A program made the translations under genes and the position numbers. This document shows positions 7,189-54,935 of a DNA stretch of 64,000 nucleotides, one piece after another. The DNA lies in IMG/VR virus record IMGVR_UViG_3300044845_000732, positions 1-64,000 of that record; one strand, 5' to 3'. Below the pieces are notes generated by a model. That model was not told the DNA's origin. It did not search any database and saw only the letters and a program-made list of their open reading frames with translations. Each line of letters begins with the position of its first letter. Position 1 is the first letter of the stretch. The stretch comes from a virus. Its lineage: Duplodnaviria > Heunggongvirae > Uroviricota > Caudoviricetes.

Positions 7189-7225
7189 AGTAATTTACGT
7201 TTTTATTACTATAAATACTTTACCT

Positions 7226-20867: not shown

Positions 20868-21073
20868 TTTTTTATGTTGTTAATGAGGTTATTGTACTCT
20901 TTTAATAAAGTTTGTTTATCATCCGATAAGTAATCTTTTTCGGATAACCAGTTAATTAATTCCTGTTTACCTAAATTATAAGATTCCACCATTGCTTGAA
21001 TGATGGAATCTTTATCCAAAAATGAATTATGGACAATATTTGTCTCGTAAATCGTTTCTAATTTTTGTTTCAT
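20864..21073 (-). CDS. small hypothetical protein
   Basis: 69-aa ORF overlapping its neighbours by 4 nt. Confidence 0.4.
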   Translation of the reverse strand: MKQKLETIYETNIVHNSFLDKDSIIQAMVESYNLGKQELINWLSEKDYLSDDKQTLLKEYNNLINNIKK

Positions 21074-22149: not shown

Positions 22150-22165
22150 AATGCAAAGATAAAAA

Positions 22166-22196
22166 AAAATCCTCAATAAATGAGGATTTTTTAAAT
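22166..22196 (-). terminator. rho-independent terminator
   Basis: Hairpin AATCCTCA-ataa-TGAGGATT flanked by A/T runs, downstream of the SPFH gene. Confidence 0.55.
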
Positions 22197-23599: not shown

Positions 23600-24262
23600 T
23601 TATTTTCTTTTTTTTCCGTCTTCGGTTTCAATCTCATCCGTGTGGTGGTCAAATAACATATCTGACACAATATCACGTTTATCCATAATTCTTATGATAT
23701 CGTCCATATCATATACTCCAAAAGTTGGGTGGCCATCCATACCAACATCCATTTTCTTACCTTTACCAAATCTTAAGTTTGTTGGCAAGTGAACGTGTCC
23801 GTGAAGGTGAATAACCCCTCTGTTTAGGTTTTCCCAAGATGCAATTGGGTAGTGGAATAGTTCAAATGTTTTGAATTTGTATGACATAGTTGTTGAACGA
23901 GTAACGCTTGCAAATAGTTCCTGACACTCACCTCGGTTATTTTGAATGTGGTGGTCGTGATTACCTAATATAAGGTGAACTTCTTTACACACGATTCTAT
24001 CTCGGAACTTTTGGATGTTTTCAAACCCGCCAAAAGACCAGTCACCCAAGTGAATTAATACATCATCTTCACCAACAACACTATTGATTCCACTAACAAT
24101 AGATTCGTTCATTTGTTCTATTGTTTTGAAATCTCTTGTTTGGTCTATTGGAATACTACCATCCGGTAATCTCCAATTTGTCACCCCACGGCAAATGTTT
24201 TTATGTCCGTAATGTGTATCGGAAGTAATAAAAACTTTTCTATCTTTATCTATTTTAATCAT
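23600..24262 (-). CDS. calcineurin-like metallophosphoesterase
   Basis: Motifs SDTHYGH, GDWSFGG, GNHDHH and GHVH. Confidence 0.7.
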   Translation of the reverse strand: MIKIDKDRKVFITSDTHYGHKNICRGVTNWRLPDGSIPIDQTRDFKTIEQMNESIVSGINSVVGEDDVLIHLGDWSFGGFENIQKFRDRIVCKEVHLILGNHDHHIQNNRGECQELFASVTRSTTMSYKFKTFELFHYPIASWENLNRGVIHLHGHVHLPTNLRFGKGKKMDVGMDGHPTFGVYDMDDIIRIMDKRDIVSDMLFDHHTDEIETEDGKKRK

Positions 24263-35017: not shown

Positions 35018-35764
35018 TTATTTTCTTTTAAGAATTTCTTTTTCATAATAATCGTCAAATCCAACCATCATATCTGACATTGATTGATTTTTCTCCACAC
35101 CAACAATTTTATCAATTAGACCAAATTGTAATGCTTCATCAGAATTGAACCATTTATCATTTCTTGATGATTCTAACATTTCTTCAAATGTCTTACCACA
35201 ATTCTCTGCCAATATTTTGAATAATAAATAATTGTATTTTTCGGCCTCAAGTTGATTAATTCTTGTGTCTTGAACATTACCTTGTGTTCCGTGAGAAACC
35301 ATGTGTGTCATTACTTTAGAAAATATTAATGAAGACCTTTTACCTTTAGCTCCCGAAGAAAGTAATACGGAACCCATTGACGCACACATACCAATATTTG
35401 TGGTTGCTACATCGGCATTAATAAAGTTCATAGTGTCTCTAATACCTAATCCACTTAAAACACTCCCACCCGGAGTTTGTAGATATAAATTAATATCTTT
35501 TTTCTTATCCAAGTTGTCTAAGAAAATAAGTTGTGATTGGATGATATCACCCATTCTGTCATCAACCGGACCTGAAGCCCATAATATTCTATCCATCATT
35601 AAACGAGAGAAAATATCCATTTGGGTTACTCTCATTTCTCTTTCTTCCAAAATGTATGGAGTCATTGAATTTTGAATGTGGTTGTTGAAGTTGTGTAAAT
35701 CCAAAGATGGTTTACCTAAATGTTTTGTGTAATAACTTTGAAATTCTTGTCCTACGTTCATCAT
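35018..35764 (-). CDS. clpP: ClpP-family serine protease subunit
   Basis: ClpP core with catalytic Ser (GMCASMGS) and His (MTHMVSHG), plus an N-terminal extension. TAtcTTTG at 35780-35787. Confidence 0.72.
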   Translation of the reverse strand: MMNVGQEFQSYYTKHLGKPSLDLHNFNNHIQNSMTPYILEEREMRVTQMDIFSRLMMDRILWASGPVDDRMGDIIQSQLIFLDNLDKKKDINLYLQTPGGSVLSGLGIRDTMNFINADVATTNIGMCASMGSVLLSSGAKGKRSSLIFSKVMTHMVSHGTQGNVQDTRINQLEAEKYNYLLFKILAENCGKTFEEMLESSRNDKWFNSDEALQFGLIDKIVGVEKNQSMSDMMVGFDDYYEKEILKRK

Positions 35765-35799: not shown

Positions 35800-36438
35800 T
35801 TAAAGTGCCAAAATATCATCAATAATTTCCTCACTTGATAAGTTGGAGTATAATCTCGGATGTTGATATGACCAAAATGTTTTCCAATTTCCGTACCAAA
35901 TAACCCCTTCTTGTCTTGGGTCAATTGTTCTCCAATCATTACTATTTTTAGGAAATCTACCGATATTATATGACTTATAATAATCTATACCATCTACTTG
36001 ATAGTATGATGGATACTTGATATTTATATCGTCAAAATTGGTATTTAAAAAAATTTTACATCCATGTATTTTTTGATATTCCTCCACCCGAGACACCCAC
36101 AATAGACATTCATCATAATTGTTAGTCTTCAAATTAAACAATACTTGTTTTCCGTAATCGTTAAAACGGTGAGTAAATATTTTTTTTAAACCAAAATTGG
36201 GGATATATTTTGAAACAGAGATTTCAAAATCAAAATAAAATTCGATTGGGATATGAAACTCACCACCATTACCGGATATTCTACGACCTTCAACGTAAAG
36301 AGATTGGTCATCATTTTTTAGGTATTCCCTCAACTCAACGTAATAAAGTTCATCGGGACCTGATATTCGTAAATAAGGTGATGGTGTAAAATTCATCACA
36401 ATTTTTTCTTCGTTAAGAGAAATAAACATAATCTTCAA
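35800..36438 (-). CDS. hypothetical protein
   Basis: 212-aa ORF in the same operon as the carbamoyltransferases. Confidence 0.5.
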   Translation of the reverse strand: MKIMFISLNEEKIVMNFTPSPYLRISGPDELYYVELREYLKNDDQSLYVEGRRISGNGGEFHIPIEFYFDFEISVSKYIPNFGLKKIFTHRFNDYGKQVLFNLKTNNYDECLLWVSRVEEYQKIHGCKIFLNTNFDDINIKYPSYYQVDGIDYYKSYNIGRFPKNSNDWRTIDPRQEGVIWYGNWKTFWSYQHPRLYSNLSSEEIIDDILAL

Positions 36439-38002
36439 TTATTAGTTTATCGATAACCCCAAGTTTTAATGACTCAAATGCTTGCTCAGGGTTTTCAATG
36501 ATTGGTTGATTGTGAGAATTAAATGAAGTGTTCAATAATAATGGTATTCCTGATAACATATAATATTCATTTAATATTTCCCAAAATTTAGGTGTTTTAG
36601 ACCTTTTAACTATTTGTGGTCTGGCCGTTTTATCTGACTTTTGTATAACTGCAGGTATCTTATCAATCCACTCATCTTTTGTATTGTAACATAATGTCAT
36701 AAACTCAGATGTGTATTTTGACTTTGATGGTGTAAAAATATTGTCAAAGGATTCTTCTAATATAATTGGGGCAAATGGCATTGTATCATATCGATTTAAT
36801 CTTTGATTTAGTAGTCTATGTGTTGAGATTTCAGTTGGTCTAACTAAAATACTTCGAGCCCCTAAAGACCTTGGACCAAATTCGGAACCATTTTGAAACC
36901 ATCCAACGATTCCTCCTTGATTGATATAATTTGCGATATCTTTCGGATTATATGGTTCTCTCTTAAAACTATAATCTTTTGAGATTTCCTGTATTTCATC
37001 ATTATTGTATGACTTTCCAAAATAAACATTAGTTAGTTCAATTGGTTCTGTAATCTCACCCAATTTTACTGCTTTATAGATACAAGCTCCTAATGACAAC
37101 CCTTCATCACCCATTGGTGGGTAAATATAAATTTCGTCAACCCATTCTAATTCGTTGAGTTTTTGATTTAATTTAACATTGGCAAATAGTCCTCCGGATA
37201 AGCATAATTGCTTATATTCAGGATATAAATTATGTAAGTCGTCAATAAATTTTAGGAATAGGTCTTCTGTTCGTTTTTGTAAATTAAATGAATAGATTTC
37301 CATTTTTTCTTGAGTATCGAAATATCCATTGAATTTCATCATGTCACCTAAAAACATAGTTTTACTTGATGACCCGGATGGGTAAAATCTAAAATCCTTA
37401 TAATTAATTACGGTGGACAACATATTATAAATTGTCTCATCGTAATGACCATTTGGACCCATACCCATTAATTTACCTTCATCTTTACACATTTTCCATA
37501 TTCCCTCACCATGTTCGTCATATCCTCTCATTGAGGATGTACTGAATCCCCAAACATGAGAAATACTTCCAAATGACGCCAATGGATGACTTTGGATTAA
37601 AGTCATTTTTCCATTATCACACAGATAAACTTTCATTACGGTACTTTCCCCTCCACCATCGTATGTGATAGTAATTGATTTACCTTTCATTCCACTGGTG
37701 TAGTAGGCACCATATGCGTGTGCGGTATGGTGACTAACTTTTTCATAATTATTGTTGCTGATTTTACGGGCAAATGCGTCCGGTGTTGGATTTGCAAAGA
37801 TTCGGTAATTGGCATCTGTTATTTTTAGACCTGTATATTTTTCCGCCTCAATACATGATAATTCACAATTAATATCGTAATTATCACCTGATTTTATTCG
37901 GGTTAGTCTCTCTTCCTCAATACAAAATGTTATTTTACCGTCTCTAATTAATGCAATAGATGGACTATGTGACCCGGTAAAGAATCCATAAATTGAACTC
38001 AT
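36413..38002 (-). CDS. carbamoyltransferase (NodU/CmcH family)
   Basis: N-terminal SIALIRDGKI..EERLTRIK; motif VSHHTAHAYGAYY; Kae1/HypF-like fold. Confidence 0.7.
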   Translation of the reverse strand: MSSIYGFFTGSHSPSIALIRDGKITFCIEEERLTRIKSGDNYDINCELSCIEAEKYTGLKITDANYRIFANPTPDAFARKISNNNYEKVSHHTAHAYGAYYTSGMKGKSITITYDGGGESTVMKVYLCDNGKMTLIQSHPLASFGSISHVWGFSTSSMRGYDEHGEGIWKMCKDEGKLMGMGPNGHYDETIYNMLSTVINYKDFRFYPSGSSSKTMFLGDMMKFNGYFDTQEKMEIYSFNLQKRTEDLFLKFIDDLHNLYPEYKQLCLSGGLFANVKLNQKLNELEWVDEIYIYPPMGDEGLSLGACIYKAVKLGEITEPIELTNVYFGKSYNNDEIQEISKDYSFKREPYNPKDIANYINQGGIVGWFQNGSEFGPRSLGARSILVRPTEISTHRLLNQRLNRYDTMPFAPIILEESFDNIFTPSKSKYTSEFMTLCYNTKDEWIDKIPAVIQKSDKTARPQIVKRSKTPKFWEILNEYYMLSGIPLLLNTSFNSHNQPIIENPEQAFESLKLGVIDKLIIEDYVYFS

Positions 38003-38005
38003 AAA

Positions 38006-39670
38006 TTATCTACTTATAATAAAATTATCAATTACTAATATGTCAAGTTTGTTTGAAATGAATGTTTTAATTGCCTCTTCAGGAGTTTCAACAATTGGTT
38101 CGTGTGGACCATTAAAACTTGTGTTAAGTAAAACAGGAACACCGGTTTCATCATAAAACGAATTGATTAGTGAATAAAATTTTGGGTTATTCTCTTTGGT
38201 AACCGATTGATGTCTTGCAGAATAATCAATATGAGTAACTGCAGGTATTTTATCTCTCCATTCTTCTTTAACTGACGTGGTCACCAACATATGAGGAGAA
38301 TAAACATCTGATTCGAAGACTTCAGATTGATGTTCAAATAAAACTGCCGGTGCAAAGGGACGATACCATTCTCTATGTTTGATATCCCCATTAATATGAC
38401 CTGACATCCATTTTTGAATTGGTGATGCTAATATTGAACGATTACCTAATGCCCTTGGACCAATTTCTGACCCTCCCTGAAACCAACCAATCACTCTATT
38501 TTGGGTTAACCAATGGGTTACATCTTTAATTAATTCACTTTCATCAACATACTCAATAATATTTAAATCAGGGTGGTTATTAATTGCCGTGATAATTTCT
38601 TGTTTTGAATATGTTTTACCAAAATATGGGGACATTGGTTCAGATGAAACAATATCCGTAAGTTGTTGATATGCATACCAAGCGCATCCTAATGGAATCC
38701 CACTATCATCACTCGGAGCTAAAAAATAAGAATTGTCATATAATCCTGAATTTAGAATAACTTCATTTGAATTACAATTTAAAAATGACCCACCAGCAAC
38801 ACATACATTCGAAGATTTTGTTAAATTTTTTGCGATTTTAGCTAAAATTAAAGAAGACCTTTCTTGTTCCCTTTGGTAAATTCCCGCAACACATGCTCTT
38901 GAGAAAAAATCAGATTTCCAAGTTACTTTTGGGTAGATTGTATTATTTGGTATGAATATATCGTCGTCTAATTCTTTTACATATTGTGGAGCTTCATCAA
39001 CAACTGTTTTGTCAGCATATGACGCCAACCCCATTAATTTACCTGCTGGCCAAGTGTTTTCATTTGGTTCGTAGATTAATTGTAATGAACCTGTTGAATA
39101 AACAGTTCCAACAGAAACACCTTCATTGGTGTCAATAGGAACAGGATATTTTATCCATTTTTTATAAACTTCATTATATCCGTTTTTTGTAAAATGAAAT
39201 AATGAAATTCCTTCGGCCCAATCTTCTTCAGGGTCTAAATCAGTTCTATCAACATCATACCATTCATGTAATTTGTTTTTGTAGCTTAAAATACTTCCGG
39301 ATGCGTCCGCAACAATTATTGCTGATTCTTCGAAACCTGAACTAAAAAACGTTGAATATGCGTGGGCCAAATGGTGAGGTAAAAATTTAAGTTTTTTCCT
39401 TTTTAAATCGATATATTTGTTGAAAAACTGAGAATCAACATCATCGGTTATTTCAGTGGTACTATAAACAAATAAGTCTATATCCCTATGAGTAATACTC
39501 AAATAATTTAAACAATAGTTTATGGATTCAAAAGGAATTAATCCCCCTTGATATGCACCATCGTGTTTTATCCTAGATAATCTTTCTTGGGTGATACCCA
39601 CCACAACTTTTCCATTTTCTATGATAACCGCACCTTTATCGTGTCCTACCGAAAATCCTAATACTCTCAT
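38006..39670 (-). CDS. carbamoyltransferase (NodU/CmcH family), tandem paralog
   Basis: GFSVGHDKGAVII..QERLSRIKHD; motif PHHLAHAYSTFFSS. Confidence 0.7.
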   Translation of the reverse strand: MRVLGFSVGHDKGAVIIENGKVVVGITQERLSRIKHDGAYQGGLIPFESINYCLNYLSITHRDIDLFVYSTTEITDDVDSQFFNKYIDLKRKKLKFLPHHLAHAYSTFFSSGFEESAIIVADASGSILSYKNKLHEWYDVDRTDLDPEEDWAEGISLFHFTKNGYNEVYKKWIKYPVPIDTNEGVSVGTVYSTGSLQLIYEPNENTWPAGKLMGLASYADKTVVDEAPQYVKELDDDIFIPNNTIYPKVTWKSDFFSRACVAGIYQREQERSSLILAKIAKNLTKSSNVCVAGGSFLNCNSNEVILNSGLYDNSYFLAPSDDSGIPLGCAWYAYQQLTDIVSSEPMSPYFGKTYSKQEIITAINNHPDLNIIEYVDESELIKDVTHWLTQNRVIGWFQGGSEIGPRALGNRSILASPIQKWMSGHINGDIKHREWYRPFAPAVLFEHQSEVFESDVYSPHMLVTTSVKEEWRDKIPAVTHIDYSARHQSVTKENNPKFYSLINSFYDETGVPVLLNTSFNGPHEPIVETPEEAIKTFISNKLDILVIDNFIISR

Positions 39671-42245: not shown

Positions 42246-42333
42246 AAAAAAATATTTGACTTTTGATAAACTTTTCGTAAGTTTGTAATAGTTATTAAGA
42301 ACACAGGTAGAAATACCACAAAAAAAAAGAAAA

Positions 42334-42456
42334 ATGAAAAACACTAATAAACATATGAACGTCTCGATTTGGAACCAACAATTTAGTAATTGTTCGTATC
42401 CGCGTATTTCGCATACAAGTTCAGATGATTTATTAAATGACGTAATTTGGGGGTAA
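42334..42456 (+). CDS. possible small ORF (40 aa), or the coding-like part of a short transcript
   Basis: TAagTTTG box about 45 nt upstream; a strong terminator follows at 42483-42518. Confidence 0.2.
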   Translation: MKNTNKHMNVSIWNQQFSNCSYPRISHTSSDDLLNDVIWG

Positions 42457-42482
42457 CCAAAATACTCATAAAATATAATAAG

Positions 42483-42518
42483 AATCCTGAACTCAAAAAG
42501 TTCAGGATTTTTTTTTTG
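42483..42518 (+). terminator. rho-independent terminator
   Basis: Hairpin ATCCTGAAC-tcaaaaa-GTTCAGGAT followed by T10. Confidence 0.65.
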
Positions 42519-42548
42519 TTAAAAAATTAAAATTAAAGAAAAAAGGAT

Positions 42549-42556
42549 TACCTTTG
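42549..42556 (+). promoter_or_regulatory. -7 box TAccTTTG upstream of the first tRNA subcluster
   Basis: Followed about 20 nt later by the conserved 22-mer leader. Confidence 0.45.
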
Positions 42557-42575
42557 TCCCGTCAAAATAAAGGAT

Positions 42576-42597
42576 AAGTTATTTGAAATATTGGTAA
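42576..42597 (+). repeat. 22-nt leader element AAGTTATTTGAAATATTGGTAA (copy 1)
   Basis: Identical 22-mer at 45531-45552; both copies lie 7-8 nt upstream of the first tRNA of a subcluster. Confidence 0.6.
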
Positions 42598-42604
42598 ACA
42601 AAAT

Positions 42605-42688
42605 GGAAGGCGGCCGAATGGACGAGGAGCTTGTCTTGAAAACAAGTAGCGGGTAACACCGTTGTGGGTTCGATTCCCATGTCTTCCT
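42605..42688 (+). tRNA. tRNA-Ser(TGA), class II
   Basis: Hand-folded. Acceptor GGAAGGC/GTCTTCC; anticodon arm CTTGT-CTTGAAA-ACAAG; long variable arm; T-arm GTGGG-TTCGATT-CCCAT. D-arm atypical. Confidence 0.55.
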
Positions 42689-42694
42689 CAATTT

Positions 42695-42766
42695 TGCCCC
42701 TTCGTATATCGGTTAGTACACATGGTTTTGGTCCATGCGGGGGGAGTTCGATTCTCTCAGGGGTAA
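42695..42766 (+). tRNA. tRNA-Gln(TTG)
   Basis: U1:A72; anticodon arm CATGG-TTTTGGT-CCATG; T-loop TTCGATT. Confidence 0.65.
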
Positions 42767-42773
42767 CAAAAAT

Positions 42774-42845
42774 GGTGATATGGCCGAGTGGCTTAGGCAC
42801 AGGTCTGCAAAATCTGTTACGTGGGTTCGAATCCTACTATCACCT
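42774..42845 (+). tRNA. tRNA-Cys(GCA)
   Basis: Acceptor GGTGATA/TATCACC; anticodon loop CTGCAAA; discriminator U; T-loop TTCGAAT. Confidence 0.65.
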
Positions 42846-42850
42846 CAATC

Positions 42851-42918
42851 ACCGAGTGGTCCGGGACCAAAGACGGCTCATATCTGACTTTAGAATGGCT
42901 CAACACCATTACTCGGTA
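42851..42918 (+). ncRNA. degenerate tRNA-like element (CAT anticodon-like loop, non-canonical T-loop CTCAACA)
   Basis: Perfect 7-bp terminal stem ACCGAGT/ACTCGGT; T-arm-like AATGG-CTCAACA-CCATT; loop CTCATAT; irregular D-arm. Confidence 0.25.
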
Positions 42919-42924
42919 CAAATT

Positions 42925-42995
42925 ACCTTGTTGGCGTAACGGAAGCGTATTTGTTTTACATGCAAAGGGAAGTGGTTCGATTCCACTACGAGGTA
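42925..42995 (+). tRNA. tRNA-Val(TAC)
   Basis: Acceptor ACCTTGT/ACGAGGT; anticodon arm TTTGT-TTTACAT-GCAAA; T-arm AGTGG-TTCGATT-CCACT. Confidence 0.6.
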
Positions 42996-43001
42996 CAAAT
43001 T

Positions 43002-43082
43002 GGGGACGGAAAGTCGTTCGGATACGGCAGCGAGACTGTAAATCTCGTCCTTTTGGGAGTGGTTCGAGTCCACCCGGCCCCA
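43002..43082 (+). tRNA. tRNA-Tyr(GTA), class II
   Basis: Anticodon arm CGAGA-CTGTAAA-TCTCG; variable-arm hairpin TCC-tttt-GGA; T-loop TTCGAGT; one acceptor mismatch. Confidence 0.5.
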
Positions 43083-43226
43083 CTATGATAATGGTTTTCT
43101 CTATCTATCGGATGTCGACAATCCAAGATAGAATCAAGAATTCTGCACCCCCTGCCGAGGCCTCGTAAAACTACGATTAAGCAGTTAAGATTGGAGCGAG
43201 ATGGGTACTCCAACATTATCATTATT

Positions 43227-43299
43227 GGGTCTTTTGTATAGCTGGTGCGTACGCTAGTCTGAAGAACTAGAGGAGTAGGTTCGATTCCTACAGGACCCA
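43227..43299 (+). tRNA. tRNA-Phe(GAA)
   Basis: Acceptor GGGTCTT/AGGACCC; anticodon arm CTAGT-CTGAAGA-ACTAG; T-arm GTAGG-TTCGATT-CCTAC. Confidence 0.65.
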
Positions 43300-43306
43300 C
43301 AAAAAT

Positions 43307-43378
43307 TCTTCTGTCGTATAAAGGTTATTACGGTTGACTGTTAATCAATTTATGGTGGTTCGAGTCCACCCGGAAGAG
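43307..43378 (+). tRNA. tRNA-Asn(GTT)
   Basis: D-stem CGTA/TACG; anticodon arm GTTGA-CTGTTAA-TCAAT; T-arm GGTGG-TTCGAGT-CCACC. Confidence 0.6.
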
Positions 43379-43455
43379 CGGAGTCCCGAAATAACGGGAA
43401 ACCCCCACTCCCATATGGCAGCCGGTCCATTAACCCGGTGAAGTGGGGTAAAATT

Positions 43456-43527
43456 GCTCTTGTAGTAGAATGGTTAGCACACATTCCTGATAAGAATGAA
43501 AAGAAGGTTCAATTCCTTCCAAGAGTA
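43456..43527 (+). tRNA. tRNA-Ile(GAT)
   Basis: Acceptor GCTCTTG/CAAGAGT; anticodon arm CATTC-CTGATAA-GAATG; T-arm GAAGG-TTCAATT-CCTTC. Confidence 0.55.
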
Positions 43528-43635
43528 CAAAAACCTTAAATGTGGTACCCGATACTGACAGCTCTTTAGGAGTGATGGGTGTGAAAGCGGGTTGAAAAGG
43601 GTACATCTCAAACCCACATTGATAGGTTTAAATAT

Positions 43636-43708
43636 GGTGGCTATAGTGTAACGGTTAACACGATAGATTGTGGTTCTGTAAATGGGAGTTCGATTCTCCT
43701 TAGTCACC
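43636..43708 (+). tRNA. tRNA-His(GTG) with G-1
   Basis: Extra 5' G pairs with C73; anticodon loop TTGTGGT; T-arm GGGAG-TTCGATT-CTCCT. Confidence 0.65.
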
Positions 43709-43715
43709 CTAAATT

Positions 43716-43820
43716 GGTCAGGTGGCGGAATGGTAGACGATAAAATAGGTGAATGGGGAATAGTGTTAATCGCTCCTATTTGAATTCCCGGCAATACAGG
43801 TTCAAGTCCTGTCCTGACCA
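43716..43820 (+). ncRNA. 105-nt tRNA-like RNA (oversized; anticodon not assignable)
   Basis: Perfect acceptor GGTCAGG/CCTGACC; T-arm ACAGG-TTCAAGT-CCTGT; Leu/Ser-like D-loop AATGGTAGA. About 25 nt surplus between the D and T arms. Confidence 0.3.
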
Positions 43821-43826
43821 CAAATT

Positions 43827-43900
43827 GTCTCCATAGTTTAATTGGAAAAATACTTGAATACGAATCAAGAGACGTGGGAGTTCGACTCTTCCTGGGGACA
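43827..43900 (+). tRNA. tRNA-Arg(ACG)
   Basis: D-stem GTTT/AAAT; anticodon arm CTTGA-ATACGAA-TCAAG; T-loop TTCGACT. Confidence 0.6.
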
Positions 43901-44103
43901 CAAAATGGAGAGTAAAACAATCAGGGTATTGTCACCTCCTGCTAAGAGAGTGGTTCTGTAAAAGGGATGGATTTCGAGTATTCTGCTCTCCGCAGAAAAA
44001 AAATGAATATGGAAAAAGAAGAAAAATTTTGGTATGAAGTAGGGTTTTTCATAACTAAAAAAGGTATTAAAGTAACTCTGTATAGAGAAGTAAAATAAAA
44101 ATT

Positions 44104-44176
44104 CGGGTAGTAGGAAAGTTGGTAATCCGCTACATTTGGGATGTAGAGAACGCTGGTTCGAGTCCAGTCTACCCGA
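44104..44176 (+). tRNA. tRNA-Pro(TGG)
   Basis: C1:G72 acceptor CGGGTAG/CTACCCG; anticodon arm CTACA-TTTGGGA-TGTAG; T-loop TTCGAGT. Confidence 0.65.
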
Positions 44177-44361
44177 CAAATGTGGCTCACAGAGTTTGAT
44201 TATTAAGTTCAAATTAGTTATAATTTGAGCCAAATAACAGAACAAAATGAGCTCAAACGCCCTCTAGGCTTTAAAGTGAAGCACGATACTTTTAATATCG
44301 GGAAGAAGGAGCATTACCTTCAGGGGGTACAAAAAAATGTTTAACTAATAAATCAAAAGTC

Positions 44362-44868
44362 GTGAGTAAGTACGCAAAAACATTGGTTTTGGATTCAAGT
44401 TATATGCCAAGGTCTATCATAAACACTGAAAGGGCTTTTGTAATAACTTATAAGGGTAACGCGAGTGTTGTTGCCGAACATCCGGAATCATTTAATCTAA
44501 TCAATCCTGAGTTAGATATAAAGAAACCATCAATTATCAGGGTTTTCAAATATGTGAATCAACCGATTCATAAAGTTCCTTTAAGTAGAGAGAATGTTTA
44601 TCGTAGAGATAATTACTCCTGTGTTTATTGTGGGTGTGAGAATCGTAAGACATTGACATTAGACCACGTAATACCTCAGTCTAAAGGAGGTAAAGATGCT
44701 TGGGACAACTTGGTAACCGCTTGTAAGAAATGTAATAGTGAGAAGTCAAATTTAACGTTGGAAGAATATGGTAAGGAAATCCCTCAACCAAGACGACCAC
44801 ATTATTTGATGATGATTAAACAAGTTCATTATGTTCCAAAAGAGTGGGAAGATTATTTGTTTTTCTAA
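44362..44868 (+). CDS. HNH endonuclease inside the tRNA island
   Basis: CVYCGCENRKTLTLDHVIPQSKGG...WDNLVTACKKCNSEK (HNH with zinc-finger cysteines). Confidence 0.72.
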   Translation: MSKYAKTLVLDSSYMPRSIINTERAFVITYKGNASVVAEHPESFNLINPELDIKKPSIIRVFKYVNQPIHKVPLSRENVYRRDNYSCVYCGCENRKTLTLDHVIPQSKGGKDAWDNLVTACKKCNSEKSNLTLEEYGKEIPQPRRPHYLMMIKQVHYVPKEWEDYLFF

Positions 44869-44872
44869 AAAT

Positions 44873-44943
44873 GCGTGATACAGACGGGATGTCGTTCAGG
44901 TCTCCAAAACCTCGAAGGGTAGGTTTGACCCCTACATCACGCG
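44873..44943 (+). tRNA. tRNA-Trp(CCA)-like with a non-canonical T-loop (TTTGACC)
   Basis: Acceptor GCGTGAT/ATCACGC; anticodon loop CTCCAAA; T-stem GTAGG/CCTAC; short D-loop; C-C mismatch closes the anticodon stem. Confidence 0.35.
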
Positions 44944-45015
44944 CAGAAGACGGAGAGTGAGTCAAGGGTAATTCCGTTATGGTTATCCCTCGAGGGTCTC
45001 TCCTGAAGAAATATG

Positions 45016-45088
45016 GATTTTGAAGCACAATTGGACGTGCGACCGGCGTAAGGCCGGGAGGATATAGGTTCGAATCCTATCAATATCC
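45016..45088 (+). pseudogene. degenerate tRNA (class I, anticodon-loop CGTAAGG = UAA with G33)
   Basis: Good D-arm GCAC/GTGC and T-arm ATAGG-TTCGAAT-CCTAT. Acceptor has a T-T mismatch, and U33 is replaced by G. Confidence 0.3.
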
Positions 45089-45280
45089 CAAATTAAAAAT
45101 AAATCTTACCAATACTTGACACTTTTATAAAAAGGACTATATTTATTAGAAATTATAATAACACAGAAAATGCAAACTTTAAATACATTATTACTTACAA
45201 TAGGCGCGGAGGGTAGAGATACAACTCGGTCGGAGATGGTATGATGTATTGTTAAGTAATTACTAATATAATAAAATCCA

Positions 45281-45312
45281 TCTCCAAAAGAGGTGGATTT
45301 TTTTTTTATACT
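45281..45312 (+). terminator. rho-independent terminator closing the first tRNA transcription unit
   Basis: Hairpin ATCCATCTC-caaaa-GAGGTGGAT followed by T10. Confidence 0.65.
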
Positions 45313-45338
45313 ATGTTTGGTAAAATGAAAAAAAGTCT

Positions 45339-45346
45339 TATCTTTG
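45339..45346 (+). promoter_or_regulatory. -7 box TAtcTTTG
   Basis: Upstream of the small acidic ORF at 45364. Confidence 0.35.
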
Positions 45347-45363
45347 TCAAAACAAATTTAAAG

Positions 45364-45480
45364 ATGGAAGAACAAGAAACAAACGATACAACGTATCAAA
45401 AATTAGAATTGGTTTATTCACCAATCTTAGGGTCAGAATACATTTTAGTTGATGTAGAAGAAACTGAAGAAAAAGAATAA
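45364..45480 (+). CDS. possible small acidic ORF (38 aa)
   Basis: MEEQETNDTTYQKLELVYSPILGSEYILVDVEETEEKE; below the track cutoff. Confidence 0.2.
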   Translation: MEEQETNDTTYQKLELVYSPILGSEYILVDVEETEEKE

Positions 45481-45505
45481 AGTTTGGTAGATTAAAATAA
45501 AGTAT

Positions 45506-45513
45506 TATCTTTG
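45506..45513 (+). promoter_or_regulatory. -7 box TAtcTTTG upstream of the second tRNA subcluster
   Basis: Same architecture as 42549-42597: -7 box, about 17 nt, then the 22-mer. Confidence 0.45.
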
Positions 45514-45530
45514 TACCATCAAACAGAAAC

Positions 45531-45552
45531 AAGTTATTTGAAATATTGGTAA
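45531..45552 (+). repeat. 22-nt leader element AAGTTATTTGAAATATTGGTAA (copy 2)
   Basis: Identical to 42576-42597. Confidence 0.6.
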
Positions 45553-45559
45553 TACACAC

Positions 45560-45631
45560 GCTGCCATCGTCTAACGGTCAGGACATATGGTTTTCATCCA
45601 TAAAATCGGAGTTCGATTCTCCGTGGCAGTA
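45560..45631 (+). tRNA. tRNA-Glu(TTC)
   Basis: Anticodon arm TATGG-TTTTCAT-CCATA; T-arm CGGAG-TTCGATT-CTCCG. Confidence 0.6.
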
Positions 45632-45637
45632 CAAGAA

Positions 45638-45709
45638 GGGGTTATAGTATAACGGCAATTACTATGGTTTTGCAAATCATAAATTGGAGTTCGATTCTCC
45701 ATAGCTCCA
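45638..45709 (+). tRNA. tRNA-Ala(TGC)
   Basis: G3:U70 identity pair present; anticodon loop TTTGCAA; T-arm TGGAG-TTCGATT-CTCCA. Confidence 0.65.
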
Positions 45710-45809
45710 CAAAAAAACAGAAAGACAGAATACGGGAAGTCACTACCCGGGAAACACGGTTCTTTCTCATTCAATTGTTATAGGATTGTCACCTTTGAAT
45801 TGAAATTTT

Positions 45810-45881
45810 GGTCTATTCGTTCAACGGCTAGGATGCTACCCTGTCACGGTAGAGATGAGAGTTCGATTCTCTCATAGACCG
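45810..45881 (+). tRNA. tRNA-Asp(GTC)
   Basis: Acceptor GGTCTAT/ATAGACC with G73; anticodon arm CTACC-CTGTCAC-GGTAG. Confidence 0.65.
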
Positions 45882-46049
45882 CCATAAATAATACATCGCG
45901 AGGGGGAGGTATAGTATCTCATCGGTCTCATAAGCCGACCAAAGCAGGAGCGTTACCTGCCCTACGCTACAAAAGTGTCTCGGTCCGCTCTGACGAAAGT
46001 CAACGACGAGGTCCCGGTAGACAGAACGCGTCTGATTCTACCCAAATCT

Positions 46050-46121
46050 GCAGATATCGTATAGTGGTTATTACTCCAGCCTTCCAAGCTTGAGACGAGA
46101 GTTCGATTCTCTCTATCTGCT
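46050..46121 (+). tRNA. tRNA-Gly(TCC)
   Basis: Acceptor GCAGATA/TATCTGC with U73; anticodon loop CTTCCAA; one C-U mismatch in the anticodon stem. Confidence 0.55.
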
Positions 46122-46128
46122 CTAAACC

Positions 46129-46200
46129 GCCTTCATAGTTCAAGGGATAGAATAAGACACTTCTAATGTTTTGATATAGGTTCGAGTCCTATTGAGGGTA
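46129..46200 (+). tRNA. tRNA-Arg(TCT)
   Basis: D-stem GTTC/GAAT; anticodon arm AGACA-CTTCTAA-TGTTT; T-loop TTCGAGT. Confidence 0.55.
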
Positions 46201-46208
46201 CAACAATT

Positions 46209-46281
46209 GCCCCGGTGGTGGAACGGTAGACACGCTTGTTTTAGGCACAAGATTTTGAGGGTTCGAGTCCCTCTTGGGGTA
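46209..46281 (+). tRNA. class-I tRNA with anticodon TAG (Leu box), anomalous
   Basis: Perfect anticodon arm CTTGT-TTTAGGC-ACAAG (G37) but a short variable loop; acceptor has three G-U pairs. Confidence 0.45.
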
Positions 46282-46436
46282 CAACACATTATCATAACTC
46301 GGTGTGATACACCGCCCACTACCTCCTTAAACAACGTGGGAACTGCGGTTCTCCCAATGTGGCCGAAGTGATGATGTTAAAATAGTAGTTTAAGAGACAG
46401 AGTTGACTTCTACTTTAAAAAAATACTCTGCGACAG

Positions 46437-46519
46437 GCTTCCGTCGCATAGAGGTTGATTGCACCTGATTTGTAATCAGGAACCGAAAGGTCACGTTGGT
46501 TCGAATCCAATCGGAAGCT
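46437..46519 (+). tRNA. class-II (long variable arm) tRNA with loop TTTGTAA (nominal anticodon TGT), anomalous
   Basis: Acceptor GCTTCCG/CGGAAGC perfect; anticodon arm CCTGA-TTTGTAA-TCAGG; variable-arm hairpin ACC-gaaa-GGT; T-loop TTCGAAT. Confidence 0.45.
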
Positions 46520-46748
46520 CGAGTCGTTTTTTTTGTTGGTTTAGTTGTTAATATGTTTTTTTTGTAGTTAAAAAAAAATCATTGTAAACAATAGGTTTTT
46601 AGAAGTTTCTTATCCTTAAAAGAAAGTATGGTGAGGTTTAAGATAAGATTAACATAACCTTAAATGGAAAATCTTTCAAAAAAACGGAAAAATGGTAAAG
46701 ACAAACTCAAGTCGAAGATGGTGAACGTGACCATCCGTTTTTCCAAAC

Positions 46749-46828
46749 ATCCCCGTGGTGAAACTGGTATACACGACAGGCTTAAGACTTGTTGCTCAGG
46801 CATGTGAGTTCGACTCTCACCGGGGATA
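46749..46828 (+). tRNA. tRNA-Leu(TAA), class II
   Basis: Acceptor ATCCCCG/CGGGGAT; anticodon arm ACAGG-CTTAAGA-CTTGT; variable arm of about 11 nt; T-loop TTCGACT. Confidence 0.55.
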
Positions 46829-46888
46829 CTAATATTAAAAGTGTAAATTATCAATATGAAAAACCAAAATCCGAACTCCACGTAGTAC

Positions 46889-47137
46889 TTGATTAGTTCA
46901 AGTATTATGACTCAGAAATTGAGAATTTGGAGAGTAGTTCCCGTTAGAAACGGTGTTCAGGCTCCCACTTTTTTTGTGGAAACCACAGAAGAAGGACGTG
47001 AGAAGGCAGAGGAATCTGCGATTAAACAAGCAAGGTTAAAAACCGGCTTAGGAAAGTTCAAACAATGGAACTTTAGATTGGAGAAACTCTCTGTGAGGGT
47101 GGATAAATTTGGTCGATACATTAAACATCACCAATAA
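46889..47137 (+). CDS. small hypothetical protein inside the tRNA island
   Basis: 82-aa ORF between tRNA-Leu and tRNA-Met. Confidence 0.3.
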   Translation: MISSSIMTQKLRIWRVVPVRNGVQAPTFFVETTEEGREKAEESAIKQARLKTGLGKFKQWNFRLEKLSVRVDKFGRYIKHHQ

Positions 47138-47228
47138 GGTTCAATAAAAACCGCTGGGGGTTTCAAATTACTCAGTGTACTTTTTAGGTTAAAGTCATGT
47201 AGGGTGTTTACACCAAAACCTAATTTTT

Positions 47229-47303
47229 GTCCTTGTAGCTAAATTGGTGAAGGCGCTCGGCTCATAACCGAGAGATATGCAGGTTCGATGCCTGCCGAGG
47301 ACA
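47229..47303 (+). tRNA. tRNA-Met(CAT) (elongator or Ile2-type)
   Basis: Acceptor GTCCTTG/CGAGGAC; anticodon arm CTCGG-CTCATAA-CCGAG; T-loop TTCGATG. Confidence 0.6.
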
Positions 47304-47341
47304 CAATTTTTTTTGTATTTAATTGATATTTTTTGAATTTG

Positions 47342-47374
47342 TTAACCCTCAATGAAAATTGGGGGTTTTTTATT
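47342..47374 (+). terminator. rho-independent terminator closing the second tRNA transcription unit
   Basis: Hairpin AACCCTCAA-tgaaaa-TTGGGGGTT followed by T6. Confidence 0.6.
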
Positions 47375-47420
47375 GGTTAGATTAAAAATAATGATTATCT
47401 TTGTAAAAAAATATAAAGAT

Positions 47421-48360: not shown

Positions 48361-48442
48361 ATAAAAAATATTTGACATATTGGAATGATTGTTGTATATT
48401 TATGGTCTGATAAATTAACATTAATTATTTAAAACAAAAAAA

Positions 48443-51577: not shown

Positions 51578-52144
51578 TTATTTAAGGTATTCTAACAATT
51601 TTTCTTTAATACCTGATTGTTTAATTCCCTCATTTTCTCTTGGTGTGTGAACAAAATTGGTTAATCCCCAATCTCGTTCAAATCCGTATGAGTCTGTTTT
51701 ACCTAATGATAGGTCATCAATACAAACCCAATGTGTTATTTCAGGATGGTCGGTCAGATATTGACTAACTTCAAAACATCTTTGTTGTAAGTGCATTGTT
51801 CCTCGTGACCATTGAACTTCAGGTAAATCACAATCAAAATATTGTTTGGTGACACCTATTGGTTTTTTGATAATCCCTTCTGAAAGGTAATAATCACCAA
51901 GTTCTTCTAAATTGGCATATAATCTCCAATCAGAGGAAACAACGATTTCTGTACCGGTTTCTTCCAATACTTGATTTAAAACCTTAACCGCCTTTTTATC
52001 GAAGTAATCAAAACGATATTTTACCTCAACATCCGGGTCATTCATCACCAAAGATATATTGTCTTTTTTTCGTTTTTTTACACGACTTCCCCAATTATTT
52101 GCTAAACAGATAACACCATCATTATCTAGAAATATCACTTTCAT
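51578..52144 (-). CDS. HAD-like hydrolase (nucleotidase/phosphatase)
   Basis: Motif I FLDNDGVI; C-terminal CIDD. Confidence 0.45.
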   Translation of the reverse strand: MKVIFLDNDGVICLANNWGSRVKKRKKDNISLVMNDPDVEVKYRFDYFDKKAVKVLNQVLEETGTEIVVSSDWRLYANLEELGDYYLSEGIIKKPIGVTKQYFDCDLPEVQWSRGTMHLQQRCFEVSQYLTDHPEITHWVCIDDLSLGKTDSYGFERDWGLTNFVHTPRENEGIKQSGIKEKLLEYLK

Positions 52145-54538: not shown

Positions 54539-54935
54539 TGGTGGAAGTGCGGAGACTCGAACTCCGGTGTTACTTGTATTACCTATTAAGGACTACACGT
54601 TTAGGTCATTGTTTAAGCTAACAATCCGAAATTTCACAATTCCCTTATTTTTAAAGTGGTTCGGTTTACTGAGAACTAATCCTCCACTTGTTTCTTTTCG
54701 GGTAGAAACCACACCTTTGTAAAGTCTTCTGTTGCAAGGTTATATGACTACCGACCCCGTGTTGTGTTTCCGATTAGGCTACAGCAACTTCTTCAGTGCG
54801 AATAAATCCAACAGCTGAAAGTTTGTCTAAAACGTTTCCGTCTAAAAGTTTGTCATCCATAGATTTAAGTGATAGGAAACTTCTCACTACGTGCCCCGAA
54901 TAACTATTACGAATAGTCAATTCCATGTCACTCCC
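54539..54935 (-). ncRNA. ssrA: tmRNA (SsrA-like), about 397 nt
   Basis: 3' end GGAGTTCGAGTCTCC-G-CACTTCC-A-CCA (T-arm, acceptor, encoded CCA). 5' end GGGAGUGACAUGGAAUUGACUAUUCG pairs with the 3' acceptor strand and resembles the tmRNA 5' consensus GGGGCUGAUUCUGGAUUCGAC. Internal tag frame ...AVGFIRTEEVAVA-TAA. Confidence 0.55.

Follow-up and report, generated by a model that had tools for sequence, protein, structure and literature searches.

A two-unit tRNA island with an essentially complete decoder set, non-canonical tRNAs and an embedded HNH endonuclease gene in a probable huge phage of Bacteroidota

The sequence considered here, which we refer to as the window, is a stretch of 64,000 nt (positions 1-64,000 of the IMG/VR record IMGVR_UViG_3300044845_000732), and the subject of this report is the tRNA island that it carries at 42549-47374. 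Within the island, tRNA genes, a free-standing HNH endonuclease gene, small open reading frames (ORFs) and conserved spacer RNAs are arranged in two units (Table 1), each of which runs from a promoter of the -33/-7 type (in unit 1 of the window, its -7 box alone) through a leader with a shared 22-mer and a dense series of tRNAs to an intrinsic terminator, an order that is kept in related loci on more than 20 uncultured viral contigs (designated by L-numbers: L005, L006, L008 and so on). The layout of both operons can be read directly from the sequence, and their transcription is predicted from it. An earlier note on this DNA had already recognised two promoter-to-terminator units, with about 18 canonical tRNAs, an HNH gene and small ORFs between them; this general plan holds, while the inventory of tRNAs and the description of the unit starts are here revised.

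With default settings ARAGORN finds 20 tRNA genes between 42605 and 47304, all on the + strand, and the Rfam tRNA model (RF00005) at its gathering score also returns 20, missing tRNA-Tyr and adding a match at 45016-45088. All 18 tRNAs named in the earlier note are present, but its count was too low, tRNA-Leu(UAG) and tRNA-Thr(UGU) having been overlooked, and the term canonical fails for tRNA-Tyr, which has the 8/4 geometry described below; the encoded G-1 of tRNA-His (43636) and the G3:U70 pair of tRNA-Ala had both been read correctly. Relaxing the ARAGORN detection threshold to 90% (-ps90) gives 26 cloverleaves, again all on the + strand and within 4.7 kb, so that the programs return more tRNAs than had been claimed rather than far fewer. 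The six additions are CAU#1 and CAU#2 (two of three tRNAs with a CAU anticodon), tRNA-Ser(GCU), tRNA-Lys(UUU), tRNA-Trp(CCA) and a tRNA-like element at 45016-45088. As a control, this setting was applied to the rest of the window (58.8 kb), where it gives a single match, and to 200 shuffles of gap sequence, which average 0.015 matches each. That single match, a 99-nt 'tRNA-Leu(CAG)' at 62400-62498 (+) within an ORF at 62266-63111, is probably a false positive. Searches for introns or for further tRNAs (ARAGORN with introns, -ps80 and -ps70) yielded only noise, with 29-175 matches off the island.

None of the six additional cloverleaves passes ARAGORN at its default, and only the element at 45016-45088 passes Rfam (40 bits), while the other 20 pass. 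Lysine and tryptophan are the two amino acids absent from the default set and both are among the additions; with its default settings ARAGORN detects their syntenic orthologues in relatives. Three pairs of CAU#1 and 16 of the 23 pairs of tRNA-Lys show compensatory changes, and these two tRNAs combine a cloverleaf kept by compensatory change with a 7-nt anticodon loop containing U33 and a fitting discriminator. The anticodon loops of the decoding variants are canonical (CUUUUAA, CUCCAAA and CUCAUAA) and the discriminators match the identities (A73 in tRNA-Lys, G73 in tRNA-Trp and in tRNA-Ser(GCU)); loop and N73 were also examined in tRNA-Trp, tRNA-Ser(GCU) and CAU#2, and such a combination is lacking in the tRNA-like elements at 45016-45088 and 43716-43820. 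With these additions the decoder genes of the island number 25 and their different anticodons 23; there is one for each codon box, and every one of the 20 amino acids is served. Adjacent tRNAs are separated by spacers of 5-8 nt, and 16 of the 26 genes have the trailer CAA.

The anticodon set has U34 in seven of the eight four-codon boxes, with ACG for Arg CGN, U34 for NNR boxes, G34 for NNY boxes, CCA for Trp and the three CAU tRNAs. The phage genes have a GC3 (GC content at third codon positions) of 0.23 and prefer A-ending codons, which are read directly by U34 anticodons (AAA 86%, CAA 90%, GAA 77%, TTA 59% and AGA 63%); this is the comparison of anticodons with codon usage that the earlier note proposed. 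A codon reassignment, suggested by the short-arm tRNA(UAG) and the long-arm tRNA(UGU), was considered and rejected: when the ClpC-like gene of the window is aligned with Staphylococcus aureus ClpC (6em8), CTT lies at Leu in 9 of 13 positions and ACN mostly at Thr, and since CTN aligns with Leu and ACN with Thr in this conserved Clp ATPase the standard code applies; short-arm Leu tRNAs in the phages phi4:1 and S-CRM01 also count against reassignment. The decoder set is a minimal and essentially complete one; this product is visible in the genes, and its purpose is what we infer from them.

A composite promoter motif, TTTG-N19-TAnnTTTG, has eight occurrences in the window against 0.84 expected, among them those before unit 2, before a 38-aa ORF and, in reverse orientation at 54980-54950, immediately ahead of a tmRNA gene. 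The earlier note had described the unit starts as a TAnnTTTG box followed by an identical 22-mer, and both boxes (42549 and 45506) and both copies of the 22-mer are indeed there. The 22-mer, AAGTTATTTGAAATATTGGTAA, occurs exactly twice in the window, at 42576 and 45531, with 0.01 copies expected even when three mismatches are allowed, and in every viral locus where it is found it stands ahead of the opening tRNA of a unit, which is tRNA-Ser(UGA) or tRNA-Glu(UUC). In relatives the promoter-leader of about 75 nt is nearly invariant over its entire length, and the adjacent tRNAs differ by 15-25%. Positioned at roughly +10 to +32 of the predicted transcribed leader, the 22-mer includes an inverted repeat of 5-1-5 form (TATTTGAAATA); it may be bound by a phage regulator or act at the RNA level in processing or anti-termination, and we give these two roles about the same likelihood. 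The terminators proposed earlier are borne out by terminator-like hairpins at 45273-45301 and at 47344-47367, both with a T run behind them, and between the two tRNA units stand two more small modules of promoter and ORF.

Other explanations of the 22-mer found no support. A host-derived tRNA or rRNA leader element of the boxA kind was rejected, since a scan of 185,579 bacterial and archaeal species genomes gave just two matches, both at chance level. A promoter is not indicated either, there being no -10 or -7 box downstream at the right distance. A leader-trailer pairing is unsupported, as the 9-nt complement TTACCAATA at 45107 is not kept in L006 and L010. A second promoter-like class, TTGACATATTGG-N-TATATT, found at 48372 and 24920, has a -35 region similar to the core of the 22-mer, TTGAAATATTGG. 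This class, TTGACA-N16/17-TATATT, is represented at 48372-48400 (+), 24920-24892 (-) and 45116-45143 (+), is of the sigma-70 type, which is unexpected for Bacteroidota, and has an extended -35, TTGACATAT(T/C)G, that resembles the leader core. Directly upstream of the island there is a further module (42255-42523, +) with a -33/-7 promoter (42255-42285), a 40-aa ORF (42334-42456) and a strong terminator (42480-42512), which is conserved in relatives at 80-85% identity.

Several of the tRNAs depart from the canonical shape. An 8-bp acceptor stem with a 4-bp T stem (8/4 geometry, 12 bp in all) is found in tRNA-Tyr and tRNA-Ser(GCU); the eighth acceptor pair of tRNA-Tyr is G-C in the window and A-U in L007, L009, L010, L016 and L027, and the tRNA-Tyr of L005 is an ordinary 7/5 tRNA. 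Mukai et al. described in 2017 8/4 forms of tRNA-Ser and tRNA-His in tRNA clusters of uncultured phages (PMC5389517). The island shares this geometry and differs in that its tRNA-His is 7/5, with G-1 and C73, the second 8/4 species being tRNA-Tyr; the available text of that paper mentions 8/4 Ser, His, Cys and Sec, and Tyr is not among them (PMC5389517). CAU#1 has no linker between the acceptor and D stems, a 4-nt D-loop, an extended anticodon stem and the T-loop CTCAACA, and like tRNA-Trp it belongs to the tRNAs with D-loops of 3-4 nt and odd T-loops. The 5-nt variable loop of tRNA-Leu(UAG) is present in all relatives and is not new, since it is also found in phi4:1 and S-CRM01, and the variable arm inserted in tRNA-Thr(UGU) is shared with L008 only.

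The most striking departure concerns the elbow, where in tRNA-Lys (D-loop TAAAGTG, T-loop AGCATTA) and CAU#2 (D-loop TATAGTA, T-loop AGCGTTA) the T-loop TTCRANN is replaced and the D-loop has AGT where relatives have GGT. Among 234 unique tRNAs tabulated from the island and 26 related loci, the D-loop GG is present in 196 of the 203 with a canonical T-loop and in none of the ten with an AGCRTTA T-loop; the near variants AGCGTAA, AGCGTAG, AGCATAG and GGCGGTA likewise lack GG, the exception being AGCATAA (tRNA-Val of L009), which retains it. In standard numbering the alternative form has A for G18, A-G for T54-Psi55 and U for A58, with G19 and C56 retained. This alternative elbow is used in at least ten tRNA identities across the island and its relatives, being found in Met (two paralogues), Lys, Ala, Asp, Phe, Glu, Ile, Val and His, and the same tRNA can be canonical in one phage and of the alternative type in another: tRNA-Ala has the D-loop AACGGCAA with TTCGATT in the window and AAAAGCAA with AGCGTTA in L006 and L015. 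Because the changes are coordinated, the stems intact and the anticodon loops canonical, they point to selection on a working alternative fold and not to decay. We regard the non-canonical tRNAs (8/4, alternative-elbow and mini-D-loop) as conserved variants under structural selection rather than decay products, and as presumably active.

Joint loss of GG and T-Psi-C is known from animal mitochondrial tRNAs, tRNA-Pyl and the staphylococcal cell-wall tRNA-Gly (PMC7609411, PMC4574755). The variants described here likewise lose both features together and keep the cloverleaf; they differ in that G19 and C56 are kept and other positions are changed in a fixed way, and in that one module is used in at least ten identities within one phage lineage, beside canonical tRNAs. 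No description of a T-loop with A54, G55 and U58 was found in the literature searched, and phages go unmentioned in a 2020 review of non-canonical tRNAs. We infer the structure of this elbow and the reason for its use from these patterns. It is conceivable, with a good deal more doubt than confidence on our part, that the lineage possesses a second, previously undescribed elbow design, with A18 for G18, a T-loop of A54-G55-C56-R57-U58 and a retained outer G19:C56 pair, which would be swapped in and out of single tRNAs (Lys and one CAU tRNA here; Ala, Asp, Phe, Glu, Ile, Val and His in relatives). Such variants would still be processed, charged and used by the ribosome, and would escape a host factor that reads the T-Psi-C/GG elbow, e.g. 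a tRNA nuclease specific for certain isoacceptors or a sensor that depends on modification. On this proposal the island would be a complete decoder set hardened against tRNA-targeting defence, with its non-decoding tRNA-like RNAs acting as decoys or processing signals and its new small RNAs freed by tRNA punctuation.

The gaps between the tRNAs are filled by conserved structured RNAs, of which there are at least seven. Strong covariation is seen in G2, with a four-way junction, in which 12 of the 34 pairs show changes on both sides and 97% of cells are paired; none of 500 shuffles scored as high and slid registers give 0-3 such pairs. G3, G4, G10, G11b and G12 are 92-100% conserved and show a few compensatory changes. 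G8b, a hairpin RNA with an exact 27-mer core, is always found immediately 3' of a tRNA, and its rare substitutions are exchanges between U-A, U-G and C-G. Two elements are tRNA-like: G5 has an insertion of about 35 nt and no anticodon arm, and scores 27.2 bits against the gathering score of 29, and in the element at 45016-45088 the 'anticodon' loop CGUAAGG can be closed to a pentaloop, its homologues in L008 and L027 having loops of 4-5 nt. Rfam recognised no known RNA family in the spacers of the window at E <= 1, and at gathering score only tRNAs in 11 relatives. The spacer elements lie 1-8 nt from the neighbouring tRNAs, and because of this small distance the cuts that mature the tRNAs would also release the spacer RNAs.

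Two kinds of element were also observed in relatives. Long tRNA-like RNAs of 80-123 nt (L008 167-260, L005 3214-3330, L015 4532-4654, L019 10544-10643 and L006 1461-1540) form a family of the G5 kind, in which the Leu-type acceptor, both the D and the T arm and A73 are conserved around hypervariable cores, some with a second T-arm-like hairpin. A GC-rich element of about 190 nt after G8b (L008 810-1010, and also in L010, L014, L017, L018, L020 and L021) replaces the tRNA-like RNA of the window and has a long closing stem (AAAGTTTAACAACCGGGG...CGGGGTTGTTAAACTTT), with no match in Rfam.

The HNH gene reported in the earlier note is confirmed by matches to PF14279 (1.8e-16) and PF01844 (8.7e-16), and its sequence matches in the PDB fall on HNH domains. 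It starts 32 nt past tRNA-Lys and ends 4 nt ahead of tRNA-Trp, and is present at the syntenic site in every relative that covers this stretch (L005, L006, L007, L010, L020, L021 and L022). Differences from relatives are biased to third codon positions (5/7/36 to 21/9/56), and the comparisons show that the HNH gene and the 76-aa gene are under purifying selection at the sequence level. Full-length homologues of the HNH protein at 33-38% identity occur in large cyanophages, near tRNAs in some and not in others. The small ORFs noted earlier are likewise there: the 76-aa gene shows third-position bias and has 105 homologue clusters, and it is joined by the 24-aa and 38-aa ORFs. A homologue of the 76-aa protein is also found in a distant relative, L032 (contig JAWVHB010000041.1, 376 kb; region 6526-8234), where it lies directly after a DUF2828/DUF7788 protein, with DnaJ, ClpP and RF-1-like genes nearby, and not among tRNAs.

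In phage T4 a cluster of eight tRNAs is transcribed as polycistrons, and the stable RNAs species 1 and 2, which lie between the tRNAs, are released by tRNA processing. The island resembles this region in being a one-strand tRNA cluster with a free-standing endonuclease gene inside (segB in T4; PMC2330249), and differs from it in its 25 decoders against eight, in its HNH rather than GIY-YIG endonuclease, in its at least seven spacer RNAs and in its Bacteroidota-type promoters. SegB promotes inheritance of the T4 tRNA region (PMC2330249), and by analogy the HNH enzyme would favour inheritance of the island in mixed infections.

The phage origin of the window, as argued in the earlier note, is well supported. 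Exact-word scans found the 22-mer in ten and the 27-mer core of G8b in 20 IMG/VR viral loci, which have the same syntenic tRNA order as the window on contigs of up to 318 kb, and the syntenic relatives are exclusively IMG/VR viral contigs. The window has phage-type genes, namely a T4 Rnl1-type RNA ligase (phrog_562, 1e-67) and a match to phrog_14949, and its ClpC-like protein has its nearest phage matches in uncultured phage genomes of 634-642 kb. The genome size of relatives reaches 318-376 kb, and the GC content of the window outside the island is about 0.26-0.36. A protein with a type IX secretion system (T9SS) sorting domain and the -33/-7 promoter type point to a host among the Bacteroidota. 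The island is mosaic at the 100-nt scale among relatives, and the stretch between the HNH gene and tRNA-Trp is a hot spot of insertion, with 1.6-2.9 kb extra in L005 and L006.

Among cultured phages, the sole megablast match is to the tRNA-Glu of the Cellulophaga phages phi4:1 and phi17:2 (Lightbulbvirus, 145 kb), at 87%. These phages of Flavobacteriia also resemble the window in their 23-25 one-strand tRNAs with small ORFs between them and in the short variable loop of tRNA-Leu(UAG); they differ in tRNA order and in lacking an HNH gene, their T-loops are mostly canonical and none is of the AGCRU type, and the exact 22-mer was not found for either in the scan of viral contigs. Chen et al. described in 2022 huge phages of 293-331 kb from freshwater (lake) Bacteroidetes that encode bS21 and have a GC content of 31.0-33.7% and 5-25 tRNAs (PMC9723584). 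The window is like these in GC content, genome size range, genes of the Clp protease/chaperone type, genes for sugar and lipopolysaccharide chemistry and predicted Bacteroidetes hosts, a likeness in general features, bS21 and TerL lying outside this window. Their paper gives tRNAscan-SE counts only and does not describe operon layout, leader, spacer RNAs or odd tRNA shapes (PMC9723584).

Taken as a whole, the island is likely to be the tRNA region of an uncultured huge Bacteroidota phage, with a complete decoder set that keeps phage translation independent of host tRNAs. That it is the tRNA region of such a phage (contigs of the lineage measure 270-380 kb), composed of two + strand polycistronic tRNA operons, is largely shown by the features described above. 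Two transcripts of about 2.7 kb and 1.85 kb would be made by host RNA polymerase and cut by host RNase P at tRNA 5' ends and at tRNA 3' ends by RNase Z or exonucleases. Addition of CCA would follow, a step that is needed because C74 is encoded in 25 of the 26 genes and CCA in tRNA-Asp alone. The same cuts would free the mRNAs of the HNH gene and the 76-aa ORF and at least seven structured small RNAs. The purpose would most probably be to keep phage translation independent of a host tRNA pool lost to host shut-off or to tRNA-cleaving defence nucleases, with the match to A/U-rich phage codon usage as a side benefit.

Phage T4 uses an Rnl1-class ligase to repair cleaved tRNA-Lys, and a ligase of this type is encoded in the same window. 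Phage tRNAs can rescue infection from tRNA-cleaving defences (PMC10264068, PMC11464382, PMC11555353), such as PrrC-type anticodon nucleases, PARIS and retron Eco7, and the island is like these cases in that the phage brings its own copies of tRNAs that defences destroy; it differs in that published resistance maps to the anticodon stem-loop, while in the island it is the elbow that is altered, beside canonical anticodon loops. Insurance against tRNA loss also fits the RNA ligase, tmRNA and Clp genes of the window.

A number of observations weigh against this interpretation. Five of the six extra cloverleaves fall below the gathering score of the Rfam tRNA model, and among the relatives sampled the alternative-elbow tRNA-Lys is confined to this window and for that reason could be newly impaired. 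None of the three CAU tRNAs combines the C1xA72 mismatch of bacterial initiators with three G-C pairs in the anticodon stem, and each of the three may be an initiator, an elongator Met or an Ile-lysidine tRNA. All sense codons are covered except possibly CGG (2% of Arg codons). Unit 1 has in the window a -7 box without the -33 TTTG that its relatives possess, and the TAnnTTTG box by itself, with 112 occurrences against 105 expected, is at chance level in this AT-rich window, so that the box of the earlier description is not significant on its own. Because of extra promoter-like sites (45116-45143 and 44196-44224) and a weak terminator-like hairpin (46717-46735), the number of transcripts may differ from two, and all of the RNA-level steps are predictions from sequence. 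The HNH gene, unlike one that is actively homing, is not sporadic among close relatives and is fixed in the lineage. Finally, codon compensation, judged from the phage side alone, is not separable from insurance against tRNA loss.

Codon compensation may in fact be all that the island provides, the tRNAs topping up isoacceptors that are rare in the host and speeding translation of A/U-rich phage genes with no independence from the host pool or from defence. The low GC3 (0.23) and the pairing of A-ending codons with U34 anticodons (AAA 86%, CAA 90%) are what such an explanation would predict, but so is a partial and skewed set, where we find exactly one decoder per box and all 20 amino acids, including Trp, Met, Cys and Ser(GCU), whose cognate AGC makes up 1% of Ser codons. 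Genomes of Flavobacteriia, the likely hosts, are as a matter of general knowledge AT-rich themselves, and the same window encodes functions of the tRNA-repair and ribosome-rescue types; we consider compensation alone to be unlikely. Similarly doubtful is the view that the odd cloverleaves and the tRNA-like RNAs are pseudogenes in decay or have no part in translation, with a working set of about 20 and with host tRNAs used for Lys, Trp and Met. The low Rfam scores of five extras and the uniqueness of the tRNA-Lys variant agree with it, G5 and the element at 45016-45088 are clearly without a usable anticodon loop, and altered elbows may mark diversion to non-ribosomal uses, for which the non-proteinogenic staphylococcal cell-wall tRNA-Gly, with altered D and T loops, is a precedent (PMC4574755). 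As the known tRNAs without GG and T-Psi-C include this non-ribosomal one, a non-translational role is a live rival. Against it, the stems are all preserved by compensatory changes, the anticodon loops are canonical and the discriminators fit, each variant is the sole island copy for its codon box, and a coordinated change of D- and T-loops in at least ten identities, with G19 and C56 kept, is not expected from random decay.

A third explanation sees the island as a selfish cassette, in which the HNH endonuclease cuts genomes that lack its gene and the tRNAs are dragged along by homing. The position of the gene among the tRNAs, the insertions next to it in L005 and L006, the mosaicism of the island and the T4 SegB precedent (PMC2330249) are all compatible with this. 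A gene that occupies the same site in all covering relatives under purifying selection looks fixed rather than sporadic, however, its cyanophage homologues are not always beside tRNAs, and homing does not explain a complete set of one decoder per box, so that we hold this account to be quite improbable. That the window is bacterial DNA with a chromosomal or plasmid tRNA array is barely credible. Long tRNA arrays do occur in bacteria (PMC8421152, PMC5966550), and no virion genes (capsid, tail or terminase) were recognised among the window ORFs tested; set against this are the absence of the 22-mer from the species genomes apart from the two chance-level matches, the exclusively viral relatives, the two phage-type genes and the ClpC-like protein closest to those of uncultured phages.

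A phage tRNA island with an embedded endonuclease belongs to a well-known class and is ordinary for a huge phage of Bacteroidota, clusters of this kind being frequent in large phages. What goes beyond known examples is a minimal decoder set that is essentially complete, a leader that is specific to the family and invariant within it, the density of spacer and tRNA-like RNAs and, above all, the conserved non-canonical tRNAs. The island gives a well-resolved view of such a cluster in a lineage of huge Bacteroidota phages that is abundant and uncultured, and its near-complete decoder set agrees with the present view of phage tRNAs as an insurance of translation against the loss of host tRNAs. Standard tools overlook a fifth of its genes, several of the tRNAs being non-canonical in ways that are both conserved and coordinated, and published tRNA counts for such phages are for this reason probably too low. 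The switch between D- and T-loop types is a natural experiment on what a tRNA elbow must keep in order to work, and the 22-nt leader and the at least seven spacer RNAs are new candidates for regulatory or anti-host RNAs.

Table 1. Features of the tRNA island and its flanks, in order of position in the window
Feature	Position	Strand	Remarks
Unit 1 -7 box TACCTTTG	42549..42556	+	-33 TTTG degenerate in window
22-mer leader copy 1	42576..42597	+	ends 7 nt before tRNA-Ser
tRNA-Ser(UGA)	42605..42688	+	long variable arm, 7/5 geometry
tRNA-Gln(UUG)	42695..42766	+	ARAGORN default, Rfam
tRNA-Cys(GCA)	42774..42845	+	ARAGORN default, Rfam
CAU#1, compact non-canonical tRNA	42851..42918	+	ARAGORN -ps90, 3 compensatory pairs
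tRNA-Val(UAC)	42925..42995	+	ARAGORN default, Rfam
tRNA-Tyr(GUA)	43002..43082	+	8-bp acceptor stem, 4-bp T stem; ARAGORN default
G2 structured RNA	43084..43226	+	four-way junction, 9-bp closing stem, exactly between Tyr and Phe
tRNA-Phe(GAA)	43227..43299	+	ARAGORN default, Rfam
tRNA-Asn(GUU)	43307..43378	+	ARAGORN default, Rfam
G3 two-hairpin RNA	43380..43455	+	92-97% identity in 8 relatives
tRNA-Ile(GAU)	43456..43527	+	ARAGORN default, Rfam
G4 conserved structured RNA	43529..43635	+	2 compensatory pairs; indel only within hairpin loop
tRNA-His(GUG)	43636..43708	+	encoded G-1, C73; 7/5
G5 tRNA-like RNA	43716..43820	+	Leu-type acceptor, D and T arms, A73
tRNA-Arg(ACG)	43827..43900	+	ARAGORN default, Rfam
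tRNA-Ser(GCU)	43907..43992	+	8/4 geometry, G73; ARAGORN -ps90
tRNA-Pro(UGG)	44104..44176	+	ARAGORN default, Rfam
G7a long AU-rich hairpin spacer	44178..44258	+	fold z = -6.1
tRNA-Lys(UUU)	44259..44329	+	alternative elbow, A73; ARAGORN -ps90
Free-standing HNH endonuclease gene, 168 aa	44362..44868	+	flanked by tRNA-Lys and tRNA-Trp
tRNA-Trp(CCA)	44873..44943	+	3-nt D-loop, T-loop TTTGACC, G73; ARAGORN -ps90
G8b ultra-conserved hairpin RNA	44945..45013	+	exact 27-mer core in 20 viral loci
Non-decoding tRNA-like RNA	45016..45088	+	canonical D and T loops
Conserved TTGACA-N16-TATATT promoter-like site	45116..45143	+	
Conserved 24-aa ORF (MQTLNTLLLTIGAEGRDTTRSEMV)	45170..45244	+	
Intrinsic terminator, end of unit 1 and 24-aa ORF	45273..45311	+	hairpin 45273-45301, then T run
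-33/-7 promoter TTTG-N19-TATCTTTG	45316..45346	+	precedes 38-aa ORF
38-aa acidic ORF	45364..45480	+	no third-position bias; coding status uncertain
Unit 2 -33/-7 promoter	45483..45513	+	TAnnTTTG box at 45506
22-mer leader copy 2	45531..45552	+	ends 7 nt before tRNA-Glu
tRNA-Glu(UUC)	45560..45631	+	ARAGORN default; megablast match
tRNA-Ala(UGC)	45638..45709	+	G3:U70
G10 conserved spacer RNA	45711..45809	+	94-99% identity in relatives
tRNA-Asp(GUC)	45810..45884	+	only island tRNA with encoded CCA
CAU#2 tRNA	45898..45968	+	alternative elbow; ARAGORN -ps90
G11b conserved two-hairpin spacer RNA	45969..46049	+	
tRNA-Gly(UCC)	46050..46121	+	ARAGORN default, Rfam
tRNA-Arg(UCU)	46129..46200	+	ARAGORN default, Rfam
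tRNA-Leu(UAG)	46209..46281	+	73-74 nt, 5-nt variable loop, A73
G12 conserved structured RNA	46283..46380	+	96-100% identity in 6 relatives
tRNA-Thr(UGU)	46437..46519	+	long variable arm inserted
G13 AT-rich variable spacer	46521..46748	+	absent in L008; weak terminator-like hairpin 46717-46735
tRNA-Leu(UAA)	46749..46828	+	ARAGORN default, Rfam
Conserved 76-aa protein gene	46907..47137	+	ATG start inside listed 82-aa ORF
CAU#3 tRNA	47229..47303	+	canonical cloverleaf
Intrinsic terminator, end of unit 2	47344..47377	+	hairpin 47344-47367, then T run

Other genes of the window also touch on RNA, proteolysis and the host. The T4 Rnl1-type RNA ligase (PF09511; phrog_562, 1e-67) at 21070-22176 (-), a nearby metallophosphoesterase at 23600-24262 (-) and a protein at 51578-52144 (-) with an HAD_SAK_2 domain, also known as the 'Swiss Army Knife RNA repair' domain, may together form a toolkit for RNA or tRNA repair beside the island. 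The tmRNA at 54539-54935 (-) is matched at full length by Rfam RF00023 (69.7 bits), has an encoded CCA and was missed by ARAGORN; it follows directly after the -33/-7 promoter at 54980-54950, and the frame past the resume region would give a tag of about GNVLDKLSAVGFIRTEEVAVA. The ClpP protease (35018-35764, -) and the ClpC-like two-ring AAA+ ATPase (57091-59106, -; E = 3e-221 to S. aureus ClpC, 6em8), considered with the tmRNA, suggest a phage-borne pathway of tagging and degradation.

A 627-aa protein encoded at 11232-13115 (-) has a cohesin-like domain and, at its C-terminus, a T9SS sorting signal (Por_Secre_tail), and is apparently a phage protein addressed to the Bacteroidota-specific secretion system of the host. 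The window also encodes a thymidylate synthase and many enzymes of sugar chemistry. Two tandem Nol-like carbamoyltransferase genes lie at 36413-39670 (-) (phrog_1601, 1e-88 and 1e-104), with a glycosyltransferase, a dTDP-sugar epimerase and sulfotransferases as their neighbours.

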